A stretch of 64,000 bases of DNA from Escherichia phage ECO103 4-12-1. The notes under the pieces are model-generated. The model had not been told where the DNA came from, did not search any database, and saw only the letters and a program-made list of their open reading frames with translations. Made by a program: the position numbers and the translations under genes. Shown here piece after piece: positions 32,515-34,549 of the stretch (positions are counted from its first letter, which is position 1; each line of letters opens with the position of its first letter). The stretch is from sequence record OR844650. The stretch is one strand, 5' to 3'.

Positions 32515-32873
32515 CGTTTTAATCTCTCTTAATGTGTAGCGGGAAGTGTTCCCGCTCTCGATGTAAAACATTATACGCCTTTAAACATAGTTTGCAAGTA
32601 CTTTCTACATGTACTTTTAAAATAGTTTTCTTTCTATATAGGGGAACTATCATTCAGTACTGCAACCATCCAGGGGAACTATCTTTCTATATAGGAGTAC
32701 TATTATTCAGTACTGAATCAACCAAATCACTACTACACCCCGTAAAACGGCCTCAGACGCATTCTAACGCATTAATACACCTAAGCTATACATTTGCACC
32801 ATTCCAATCATTCCAGGGCTTTACGGGCCGTTTAAACGCGTTAAATTATTTTCAATTATTTTGTTTTTAGGTA

Positions 32874-32901
32874 TTGACTTGATCCTGAAAAAGCGTATAA
32901 T
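32874..32901 (+). promoter_or_regulatory. plus-strand sigma70-like promoter (TTGACT-16-TATAAT)
   Basis: in ORF-free region; followed by 'ccccagagggtgcgg' box. Confidence 0.4.
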
Positions 32902-33215
32902 TACTACATAGACGCGAGAAAGCGGAAACCCCAGAGGGTGCGGAATTACGCCCAAAATTCAAGATATAAAAAAAGGATACACTCCCGCACCCTAGCAGGT
33001 AAACGCACTTTCTCAGTACTGAAATATAGTACCATAGTACGGCCCAGGATAGCAAGCAAATTAATTAAAACTTTTTTGCTTCCAGGGTATTGCTTTATTT
33101 TTTCAGTACTGTATAATAGTTCCATCAAGTCGAGAAAGACTCAAGCCCACCGGGTGCATAGTTACGCCCAAAATTCAGTACTGAAAAAATTTTTAAAAAA
33201 TATCCGTCCAGGCCG

Positions 33216-33244
33216 TTGACATTGCCCCCAGTTTATAAGATAAT
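33216..33244 (+). promoter_or_regulatory. plus-strand sigma70-like promoter (TTGACA-17-GATAAT) reading into iteron block
   Basis: direct read; no ORF downstream. Confidence 0.45.
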
Positions 33245-33339
33245 GATTCCAGATTCAGAAAAATCTAACTTCAGATACTGCGGGGAAACTATCCCCACGC
33301 GGTAGGGGAACTATTGGAAAAACAAAATAAAATTTTGAT

Positions 33340-33480
33340 TTAGCCGTCTATACTTCCAGACGTGTAACCATCTAGCCGTTTAGCCGTCCAAACGTCTAGC
33401 CATCCAGCCATCCAGAAATCTAGCCGTTTAGCCGTCTAGATGGATAGCCATCTTTACTTCCAGACTTCTGGAGGGCTAGA
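33340..33480. repeat. iteron-like direct/inverted repeat block (candidate origin or protein-binding array)
   Basis: 'atctagccgtttagccgtc' x2, 'tagccgt' x5, 'ccatcca' x3, 'cttccagac' x2; GC-richer than surroundings; ORF-free. Confidence 0.5.
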
Positions 33481-34549
33481 CATATCTACGTCCAAAATCC
33501 ATCCAGGGTAACTACACCCAAAATCCGTCAGTACTATACCATAGATCTATCTTTTGAAAGGGAGTATTCAGTACTGCCATCATAGCCCTCACTATGTTAC
33601 CCTAGGAGGATGAAGACCATCATGTAGTACTGAATACTGTTAGAGGGAATCCACCAGCACAAGCTGGTGGCATAATGCTTTAGATTAAAATCAGTACTGA
33701 CACCATTCTGTTAATATCAGTACTGTTATTACGATTTTCATATGAGGTTCAAAAAGATGTACCACCACAGGAGGAACTATCTTTTCTGTACTGTCTCACG
33801 ACAGGAGGTAGAGTAAATGAATTGTTCGCAGCAACTCATCACCCTATGTAGAACATTATACAGTACTGAATCATAAAGTCAATAACTTTCTTTCATCTTT
33901 CAGTACTGATATTCTTGAGAACTACCCGACTACAAACATCATTATATCCCACAAATCATAAACGTCCCAACGTAAATTTCAACTTTCGAAGATCCAACTT
34001 TTATTTCATAGGTACTCCAAAATTTTTAGGATCGAGATTTAGGATGGAGTACTAACCAACTTTTTGCTGGAGCCTCAAGGGGTAATGGAATTTTACCCCG
34101 AAGGGTAAAGGGGTAATTGAAATTAAGGTGAAAGTAATAATTCAGTACTAATCATTGCGTGATTACTTTTGATTACATTTGATGTAATTTGCAAAATGGA
34201 AAAGGAGCTTGGAAACTACAAAGTACGGCAGACTTCCTCTGCCTACTTAGTGGCATATCGACACCTTCAGTACTGAATACTTTTAGGGCAGTACTGAATC
34301 CTTCCCTAGCATTCTTGAGTAATCTTGTCTATAATAATCAGTACTGAATCATATATAATCATTCTGTGATTCTACGGTGCTCATATAAATGTTTATATAT
34401 GATTACTTATGACTACATATGATTACGGGGTTTAGCCTGGGGAGAATCCTAGTGATCGCATTTGTCCAGGCTGAATTTTAACAATTCTTCTAATTGTTAA
34501 AGCCTGTCCAATGCTTTCCCTGCGGAGCTTCCCCTGTCTATATGTTGAA

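Follow-up and report, generated by a model that had tools for sequence, protein, structure and literature searches.

What is the role of an interval of about 2 kb without an open reading frame (ORF) in the genome of Escherichia phage ECO103 4-12-1? The interval (positions 32,572-34,549) lies in a 64,000-nt stretch of sequence record OR844650, which is called the window here, and an earlier note made from the sequence had flagged it as a candidate replication origin or control region. Comparison with related phages places the right-hand end of the genome inside it, at the boundary of a long direct terminal repeat (DTR). We consider it somewhat probable that the interval is an untranslated control region of the DTR boundary and the jumbo-phage counterpart of Repeat Region 3, or injection stop signal (iss), of phage T5.

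A megablast search with 32,300-34,900 matched 42 phage records, the best of which are Asteriusvirus jumbo coliphages with 88-98% identity (including Ecwhy_1, fEgEco12, Turkey3, WPEC5, PBECO4, 121Q, and G17). The source is judged from these matches to be an Asteriusvirus (PBECO4/121Q/G17-like jumbo coliphage) whose assembly has the DTR collapsed. The termini were mapped by aligning the kilobases at either end of four records (WPEC5, fEgEco12, BF17, and G17) with the window; these GenBank records come from four different laboratories and were deposited with both DTR copies. All four (4/4) have their ends exactly at window positions 12,973 and 34,247. The window is thus laid out with the right-hand unique genome end at 1-12,972, one copy of the repeat, and left-hand unique DNA from 34,248 onwards. 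The DTRs of relatives are 20.7-21.7 kb long as determined by PhageTerm, read coverage, or restriction digests (PMC13070987, PMC11895373, PMC6563267). The fEgEco12 DTR is 20,993 bp by PhageTerm and confirmed by restriction digests (PMC13070987), that of Sharanji is 20,668 bp (PMC11895373), and the terminal redundancy of G17 is about 20 kb by read coverage (PMC6563267). The related phage CBB has a 22.5-kb repeat as indicated by twofold coverage and pulsed-field gel electrophoresis (PMC5259590). By this alignment the flagged interval consists of the last 1.7 kb of the DTR and about 0.3 kb beyond it, with the physical genome end placed inside. With the terminus at 34,247, it therefore closes the left repeat on its inner side and forms the outermost part of the right repeat. 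The suggestion of a control region or packaging site is borne out to the extent that the right genome end (right DTR boundary, 34,247) lies inside a conserved cis-acting block.

The context of the cut site, ...TGCCTACT/TAGTGG (GGCAGActtccTCTGCC-TACT/TAGTGG), is identical or near-identical in six of the seven genomes compared. The hairpin occupies -20..-4 relative to the cut and ends 4 nt upstream of it, and the TGATTAC decamers are found at -87..-54 and +142..+179. These phased repeats are possible candidate binding sites for the terminase or an accessory protein. The left repeat boundary (12,973-13,140) is a non-coding segment of about 170 bp with ACGCAT-containing repeats and a TTGACT...CAGTACT promoter-like site, and its ACGCATTAAT recurs at 32,767 inside the flagged interval. 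It does not resemble the right cut site, and none of the right-edge arrays is found at 12,973. The GC content steps from about 0.33 to 0.42 at this left boundary (~13,000). An 8,298-bp 'T5-type' DTR published for UE-S1 (ON568341) conflicts with the ~21-kb repeats of its relatives (PMC12805682); the fEgEco12 authors likewise regard the UE-S1 DTR as mis-assigned (PMC13070987).

The interval is non-coding, as the earlier note had claimed. The longest ORFs inside it are 93, 92, and 62 aa, and every candidate ORF, including those called by the WPEC5 pipeline, is broken by a stop or frameshift in part of the six further Asteriusvirus genomes compared. The curated records 121Q, A4, and CMSTMSU have no annotated coding sequence in this region. 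Small ORFs at 33817-, 33915-34055, 34169-34276, 34189-34347, 32532-32870, and 32938-33219 and two minus-strand ORFs were considered and rejected, all being broken in relatives. A search of the 64-kb window against Rfam 15 gave no match at the gathering threshold, and no tRNA was found either; at a permissive threshold the best sub-threshold match scored 20 bits against a cut-off of 65, and nothing was credible. Pfam and PHROG scans of ten flanking genes returned families of unknown function alone, with no initiator, terminase, or recombinase.

The region is nevertheless under constraint. Identity in 50-nt bins across seven Asteriusvirus genomes is 0.83-0.97 through most of it, equal to or above that of the coding flanks, with maxima at 32,750-33,150, 33,300-33,450, and 33,950-34,050 and a minimum of 0.57-0.60 just outside the terminus. 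A block resembling the third maximum is found in Erwinia phage pEa_SNUABM_12. Sensitive blastn detected two sub-elements in other genera (Alcyoneusvirus, Eneladusvirus, and Mimasvirus), and several of these phages (Muenster, the Erwinia pEa phages, XbC2) have the matching segment about 1 kb away from the end of the record. There are 20 direct-repeat families and 46 inverted pairs in 2.3 kb; among them the twofold direct repeat reported before is real (32629-32662 / 32682-32715, 34 nt, 91% identical). Apparent insertions of 0.9-1.2 kb in relatives turned out to be alignment artefacts of repeated promoter cassettes and a gene-cassette difference to the left of the region, and the flagged region itself is collinear among relatives. 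It was concluded that the region is a conserved cis-acting block of non-coding DNA. Decayed coding DNA, or neutral spacer in which repeats have accumulated, would agree with the lack of ORFs and with the short unconserved ORFs called by some annotation pipelines. That explanation is contradicted by conservation equal to that of the coding flanks and by modules kept across genera and even virus families, and we regard it as barely credible. For annotation, it matters that pipelines put spurious small ORFs here and that several curated records leave the region blank. For phage engineering, the repeat boundary, early promoters, and possible small RNAs are all located here.

The strongest clue to a function is a tandem array in the middle of the interval. 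It had been described as a GC-richer iteron block; the GC-richer repeats are real (GC 0.49 vs 0.355 in the window), but they form a contiguous 8-bp tandem array and not spaced iterons of the Rep type. In register, the units start AGCCGTCT ATACTTCC AGACGTGT AACCATCT AGCCGTTT AGCCGTCC AAACGTCT. The mean match of 20 units to the met box AGACGTCT is 5.65/8, compared to 6.0 for the E. coli metJ/metB operator (4 boxes) and 5.2 for the metF operator (5 boxes), both taken from MG1655. Under four mutually independent sets of array boundaries (TRF, a repeat finder, the block in the earlier note, and the blast query) AGACGTCT ranks 1st-4th of 65,536 octamers as the unit consensus, which amounts to roughly p < 5e-4 when eight phases are allowed for. 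The array is the sole such run in the 64-kb window. Its length differs among relatives mostly by multiples of 8 bp (-16, +8, +40, +8), with 1- and 6-nt gaps also in the unverified CMSTMSU record; slippage alone would equally yield multiples of 8. Like the E. coli MetJ operators, the array is made of contiguous 8-bp units with the same per-position consensus AGACGTCT, and single units match natural boxes (e.g., AAACG, GGAC(G/T)TCT, and AGATG types); MetJ binding is predicted. Unlike them, it has about 19 units as opposed to 4 (metJ/B) and 5 (metF), overlaps no met-gene promoter, and sits in a terminal repeat. It lies about 95 bp downstream of the third plus-strand promoter (P3, Table 1), no met gene is present, and tblastn detected no MetJ homolog in the window.

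MetJ binds tandem met boxes and is present only in Enterobacterales, Pasteurellales, Vibrionales, Aeromonadales, and Alteromonadales (PMC4239095). Used alone as a blast query, the array matched 82 phage records, usually less than 1 kb from the record end. The array-bearing phages are Rak2-like genera, T5-like Demerecviridae (Aeromonas phages AhSzq-1 and AhSzw-1, Vibrio phages pVp-1, VPT02, VPG01, Pontus and relatives, and Providencia phage PSTCR5), and T7-like Autographiviridae (PGT2, phiKT, and KPV811). The PGT2 array is found 40-114 bp away from the end of that genome. Their hosts all belong to MetJ-bearing orders except for one phage labelled as Xanthomonas, XbC2, which in this region is near-identical to an Erwinia phage. 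Recognition by a shared host factor is a more economical account of this distribution than recognition by terminase because the T5-like, T7-like, and Rak2-like terminases are unrelated.

The iss of T5, or LTR 'Repeat Region 3', was reportedly described by Heusterspreute in 1987 and by Wang in 2005. In the T5 annotation (AY543070) the injection stop signal spans 9140-10149, at the inner end of the 10,219-bp left repeat. Davison described the T5 region as 1.2 kb long, untranslated, extremely repeat-rich, above its neighboring ORFs in conservation, and overrunning the repeat by 270 bp (10.1101/866236), with a calculated shear point at ~9,618 (10.1101/866236). The interval in the window is likewise an untranslated region of more than 1 kb at the inner end of a long early-gene DTR, with an overrun of ~300 bp here (and ~1.7 kb inside) against 270 bp in T5, and it shares the dense direct and inverted repeats and the conservation at or above adjacent ORFs. 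We found in the T5 iss region a perfect LexA SOS box (TACTGTATAAATATACAGTA, ~9,408-9,428), DnaA boxes, and at least four Fur-box-like sites (AAATGAGAATCATTATCATT; TGAGAATCATTATCA type) at 9,554-9,713, spanning the shear point. The preprint on this T5 region names the DnaA boxes; Fur, LexA, and MetJ are unmentioned (10.1101/866236). T5-like Aeromonas and Vibrio phages carry the same met-box-type octamer array in the iss-equivalent region. AhSzq-1 has a 230-bp octamer array, with an SOS box and a DnaA box next to it, in an ORF-free gap located downstream of A1/A2; the array of Pontus comes after DRD-type repeats and is itself followed by DnaA and SOS boxes. T5 itself has its Fur-box-like array in common with the Klebsiella relatives of the phage studied here. 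In Muenster and RaK2, Fur-box-like AAATGAGAATCATTATCATT arrays occupy the slot held by the met-box array in the window, and the leader GGGGAACTAATGGAAAA that precedes the slot is kept in all three jumbo genera. The slot thus appears to be conserved in position, with contents that are exchangeable among predicted host-repressor operators. The ORF-free repeat end of Muenster (4,940-6,600; also in RaK2) contains at least seven Fur-box-like sites, some of them in the loops of promoter hairpins, which suggests iron-responsive control or Fur recruitment. There are differences from the T5 iss too. DRD (TGTGCAAATCCGACA) repeats are absent here and the repeat is twice as long, while the promoter-hairpin modules and CAGTACTG sites found here are not present in T5.

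The rest of the conserved sequence is largely promoters and hairpins. Of the three plus-strand promoters proposed before, those at 32874 and 33216 hold up (each 11/12), whereas the one at 33090 has a perfect -10 but a -35 with just 3/6 matches. Two strong minus-strand promoters (33882 and 32597) had been overlooked. As a class, promoter-like matches are not enriched (15 vs 15.3 in shuffles); the predicted promoters are credited for their quality and conservation, and their number carries no weight. Sigma-70 promoters predicted on both strands are directly supported: the first leftward early-gene promoter, three rightward ones, and one convergent leftward one, pointing into hairpins and not into ORFs. 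Downstream of the 32597 promoter are a 5' hairpin AGCGGGAAgtgTTCCCGCT (32538-32556) and a Shine-Dalgarno sequence. A near-identical cassette is found at 31,793-31,825, 32,110-32,142, and 32,570-32,602 before small DTR genes, in the order AAAGTAC-TTGCAA-16-TATAAT-GTTTTACATC, hairpin GTGGGGAAtaGTTCCCCAC, Shine-Dalgarno. These cassettes (32597, 32137, 31820) are similar to the PeSL (promoter-early stem-loop) cassettes of T4-type phages, reportedly described by Arbiol et al. in 2010, in that a sigma-70 early promoter and a stem-loop are repeated before small early genes. The sequences are unrelated, and here an AGTACT site abuts the -35. A reading of P2 as a T4 MotA box (ATTGCTTTA) was rejected, the spacing to the -10 being 14 rather than ~12.

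Promoter P1 is followed by a long imperfect hairpin, GAGAAAG..CCCC..GGGTGCGG / CCGCACCC..GG..CTTTCTC, and the two are referred to as module A (Table 1). It shows 67-72% identity to Klebsiella phages Muenster, RaK2, and K64-1. Homologs are found in four jumbo-phage genera (Muenster/RaK2, pEa_SNUABM_12, Kaldavass/XbC2, and GAP32), often in two to three copies per repeat end, each with its own promoter at a fixed distance, mostly TTGNNN-N-CAGTACTG-GCATAAT. Independent folding gave the same nested hairpin in seven of eight homologs (z -3.7 to -10; the window copy -32.1 kcal/mol, z -3.7). In Muenster, the PhageTerm-predicted 20-kb repeat ends 1,155 bp past the module A homolog, compared to ~1,130 bp here. 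A covariance model scored 115 bits on the 32905-region copy and detected a second full copy, absent from its training set, in a 270-bp intergenic gap of the DTR outside the flagged interval. Convergent promoters of the form TTGAC(A/T)-N-(C)AGTACTG-GCATAAT flank this copy on either strand, so that the whole unit is a large inverted repeat. The truncated copy after P2 gave a weak match (33121-33244, E 0.5), and the model had no match in T5-like or T7-like loci. The core of module A is invariant in sequence and palindromic, and the model scores on both strands. Module A is a candidate small structured RNA or DNA palindrome within a conserved promoter-hairpin module. The leader of P3 is kept in Erwinia and Klebsiella jumbo phages. 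The predicted transcript of the 33882 promoter is ~165 nt, with a 14-bp hairpin built from two CAGTACTG sites (33692-33725) and a U-rich tail at its end (-48.9 kcal/mol, z -3.6). The coordinates of these features are listed in Table 1.

Table 1. Features in and around the flagged interval of the 64,000-nt window (one strand, 5' to 3')
Feature	Position	Strand	Description
DTR, one collapsed copy	12973..34247	.	~21.3 kb; ~50-80 small leftward early-type genes; ends of four relatives
Second full module A copy, outside the flagged interval	30654..30786	+	Covariance model 44 bits, E 2e-7; absent from the training set
Promoter cassette of the first DTR gene (start codon 32515)	32538..32597	-	AAAGTAC-TTGCAA-16-TATAAT; promoter 32597..32570, 10/12
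34-nt direct repeat	32629..32715	.	Two copies each ending TTCAGTACTG, partial third between; repeat family D2
Module A (P1 and long imperfect hairpin)	32874..33038	+	P1 TTGACT-16-TATAAT 32874-32901; hairpin 32905-33038
P2 and truncated, diverged module A copy	33090..33244	+	TTGCTT-16-TATAAT; TTCAGTACTG abuts -10; repeat families D10/D12
P3 and leader	33216..33341	+	TTGACA-17-GATAAT; hairpin GCGGGGAaactaTCCCCaCGC 33280-33301 and GGGGAACTATTGGAAAAA; z -3.0; reads into the octamer array
Tandem octamer array	33342..33493	.	~19 contiguous 8-bp units; per-position consensus AGACGTCT = MetJ met box
Minus-strand promoter	33682..33882	-	TTGACT-16-TATAAT 33882-33855, 11/12; CAGTACTG in spacer; convergent with P2/P3
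Most conserved block near the end	33950..34050	.	0.90-0.96 identity; GGTACTCCAAAATTTTTAGGAT and 13-bp tandem TTTAGGATCGAGA x1.9
TGATTAC repeats, 10-bp-phased	34160-34193 and 34389-34426	.	Both sides of the terminus; repeat families D3, D11
Hairpin GGCAGActtccTCTGCC then TACT	34227..34247	+	34,247 = last DTR base = right end of virion DNA; four records end there
ORF-free overrun into unique DNA	34248..34549	.	~300 bp; three CAGTACTG sites; least conserved part (0.57-0.60)

The explanation that we favor takes the DTR boundary with its genome end, the constrained non-coding DNA, the array of met-box consensus, the promoter-hairpin module, and the similar arrays in T5-like iss regions together. 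We class the interval as positionally equivalent to the T5 iss and presumably working like it, and not as a demonstrated member. Host MetJ with S-adenosylmethionine, or a ribbon-helix-helix protein of the same 8-bp register, would coat the array cooperatively and form a large nucleoprotein block ~750 bp inside the repeat boundary, in the slot held by Fur-box-like sites in T5 and the Klebsiella jumbo phages, which in T5 is where the transfer of DNA pauses. Such a block would most likely serve to mark and insulate the junction between the DTR and the unique DNA. It may pause or anchor the entering DNA after the early-gene repeat, as a stop resembling that of first-step transfer, and/or set the limits of the repeat when concatemers are processed. 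The promoter-hairpin modules could give short abundant early RNAs or a transcription-dependent remodelling of the junction, and a cut at 34,247, by the small hairpin and between the phased TGATTAC repeats, would make the genome end.

Several results weigh against this explanation. No DnaA (TTWTNCACA), SOS, or Fur boxes were found in 32,572-34,549, so that the central feature of the iss as Davison describes it is lacking; the paired DnaA boxes of Davison's IRD'-spacer-IRC' module were not encountered here, whereas T5, AhSzq-1, and Pontus have DnaA boxes. The T5 genes A1, A2, dmp, and T5.007 gave no detectable homolog in a tblastn search of the window (best E 0.25), within the sensitivity of sequence-level comparison. 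At met-box position 3, about half of the array units carry C where the consensus has A, a change that may make MetJ bind less tightly. The covariation in module A is not significant (76.6% of cells paired vs 76.3% in shuffles, and four pairs with double changes). The terminus at 34,247 is a position transferred from relatives with 94-98% identity, the end of this isolate itself being inferred from them. Should the right end lead, this region would enter the cell before the rest of the genome, which would suit a 'leading-end promoter' role of the T7 kind better than a stop signal. The genome ends of the T7 group also combine gene-free DNA at the terminal repeat with short-repeat arrays and strong promoters; the T7 repeats are shorter (~160 bp), the arrays consist of 7-mers with variable spacing, and the promoters are specific for the phage RNA polymerase. 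Dunn and Studier are said to have described these ends in 1983, with SRL/SRR short-repeat arrays by the terminal repeats and phiOL/phiOR promoters.

A broader proposal can be made with the same elements. Arrays of host-repressor operators (MetJ here; Fur-box-like sites in the Klebsiella relatives and T5; SOS and DnaA boxes as well in T5-like phages) would be the core of iss and genome-end regions, and unrelated DTR phages would use them as interchangeable landing pads, the resulting block stalling, anchoring, or protecting the genome end and the 21-kb repeat being delivered first in a T5-like two-step transfer. We offer this as speculation that is unlikely to be right as it stands. It bears on a problem dating from the 1960s-80s, the halt of T5 DNA transfer at ~8% of the genome, where the iss has been described as a 'Matryoshka' of repeats. 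That 350-kb jumbo phages have a region in the equivalent position supplies a concrete and cheap hypothesis for the T5 stop: the repeat slot holds recognizable host-repressor operators, and the met-box array occurs at the ends of three unrelated phage families with MetJ-bearing hosts.

Among the other explanations, a cluster of small regulatory RNA genes is possible though less probable than the boundary region, with which it is compatible. Short structured RNAs would be made from P1, P2, P3, and the minus-strand promoter, as the consensus promoters at a fixed distance from hairpins conserved in four genera, the folding z-scores of -3 to -10, and the terminator-like ends of some copies suggest; a second module copy elsewhere in the repeat points the same way. 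In the relative PA5oct, the DTR genes are strongly transcribed early and two non-coding RNAs (ncRNAs) of the DTR region are highly transcribed throughout infection (PMC7318152). These ncRNA1 and ncRNA2 loci of the 39-kb PA5oct repeat are, like the present one, ORF-free and inside the terminal repeat of a Rak2-related jumbo phage (PMC7318152); their positions within the repeat differ, and their transcription was observed whereas it is predicted here. The covariation at the level of shuffles and the lack of an Rfam relative speak against RNA genes, and a DNA-level site fits the invariant, palindromic hairpin core that scores on both strands equally well. Alternatively, the array could be a transcription-factor sponge that titrates MetJ from the host chromosome and derepresses methionine and S-adenosylmethionine synthesis for the phage, with Fur in the Klebsiella phages and LexA, DnaA, and Fur in T5 titrated alike. 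With 19 met boxes in each of its two repeat copies, a genome would provide many sites, and replication would multiply them; the slot holds Fur-box arrays in Muenster, RaK2, and T5, and the host range fits the distribution of MetJ. T5, however, degrades host DNA within minutes, which would make the derepression of host genes pointless there (10.1101/866236), and titration alone leaves the invariable placement at genome ends unexplained, so that we think a sponge unlikely.

The two readings raised by the earlier note are less probable still. If the region were purely for packaging, the terminase or its accessory proteins would use all of the repeats to make the right end and to duplicate the DTR. 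The terminus inside the region with its context kept in six of seven genomes, the hairpin just upstream of the cut, and the phased decamers on both sides of it agree with such a use. Against it, the best-conserved modules are 750-1,350 bp from the cut, and the 150 bp just outside it are the least conserved. The octamer array is common to phage families whose terminases are unrelated and whose repeats differ greatly in length, which suggests a host factor and not a terminase. The left boundary (12,973) is also without these arrays, and the large terminase gene of G17 is ~130 kb away; packaging as the sole function is distinctly unlikely. A replication origin, in which P1-P3 transcripts prime or open the DNA (as in T4 oriF/oriG, T7 phiOL, or ColE1) and the array binds an initiator, appears more doubtful again. 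Tandem strong promoters do read into repeats, genes for RNase H-type enzymes and a T4-like replisome are present elsewhere in the phage, and between 33.9 and 34.9 kb the GC skew shifts from about -0.15 to +0.25 though the genes on both sides are on the minus strand; the plus-strand skew at third codon positions is -0.15, +0.07, and +0.32 across the repeat. This sign change at 33.9-34.9 kb is not diagnostic of an origin because the collapsed assembly fuses the two ends of a linear genome there and the gene family changes; end-primed recombination-dependent replication or composition could equally produce it. The supposed AT-rich stretch (33650-33760) has a GC content of 0.351 vs 0.355 for the window (53rd percentile), which removes the unwinding segment from the proposed origin layout. 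DnaA boxes and an adjacent initiator, helicase-loader, or other replication gene are also missing. Iteron-type origins (lambda ori, P1 oriR, R6K, pSC101) do resemble the locus in having clustered direct repeats in non-coding DNA with promoters nearby; their units, however, are ~17-22 bp in helical phase, accompanied by an initiator gene, an unwinding element, and DnaA boxes, whereas the 'iterons' here are contiguous met-box-type octamers. The same array is found in T5-like iss regions, and the T5 origins are near the genome center (10.1101/866236).

The dense CAGTACTG sites that had been counted as part of the origin layout are real (13 in 1,978 bp) but not specific to the region, as they are enriched clade-wide. 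The window has 64 CAGTACTG sites vs ~1 expected and 268 copies of the core AGTACT vs 21 expected. The AGTACT density is 4.4/kb in the coding sequence of the DTR, with no codon-frame preference, and 12/kb in its intergenic DNA; the 9.5/kb of the flagged region is not above that of other DTR intergenic DNA. The DTR ends of Klebsiella, Erwinia, and Cronobacter relatives (four other Rak2-like genera) have 6-8/kb, the replication/structural region of G17 (120-170 kb) has 1.5/kb, and the T5 left repeat has 0. In the 120-170 kb region of G17, AGTACT is the commonest palindromic hexamer (74 sites vs 17 expected). The dense sites in the flagged region are accounted for by a clade-wide signal in a long intergenic stretch and not by an origin-specific array. 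In promoters AGTACT is placed in two ways, either abutting the -35 (AAAGTAC-TTGCAA) or filling the spacer up to the -10 (CAGTACTG-GCATAAT / -TATAAT). SlmA (GTGAGTACTCAC), LexA (CTGT-N8-ACAG from two sites 18 bp apart), Cra, and TrpR were considered as CAGTACTG binders and rejected on account of flanks or spacings that do not fit. A literature search gave no paper that connects Rak2-like phages with AGTACT, met boxes, or iss-like regions. With an enrichment of 4- to 35-fold, AGTACT is a second clade-wide signal exposed by this analysis. Two islands of small leftward genes (window 1-5,671 and 8,111-13,103) have zero AGTACT, unlike the adjoining DNA. At least 12 GC-containing palindromic hexamers are at zero copies in G17 120-170 kb (ACCGGT, AGCGCT, AGGCCT, CAGCTG, CCATGG, CCCGGG, CCGCGG, CCTAGG, CGATCG, CGCGCG, CGGCCG, and CGTACG), which indicates strong avoidance of restriction sites.

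Two gene arrays lie to the right of the interval. About 20-25 leftward paralogous genes of 60-80 aa occupy 34,550-39,400; their coding strand is unusually C-rich, with a third-position GC skew of -0.32. The three genes scanned at the left end of this array (34,550-35,161) belong to phrog_11711, and the family begins at the skew flip. About 14 rightward tandem paralogs of ~380 aa follow at 39,426-57,211 and are annotated in relatives as RCC1/ATS1-like 'chromosome condensation regulators'.

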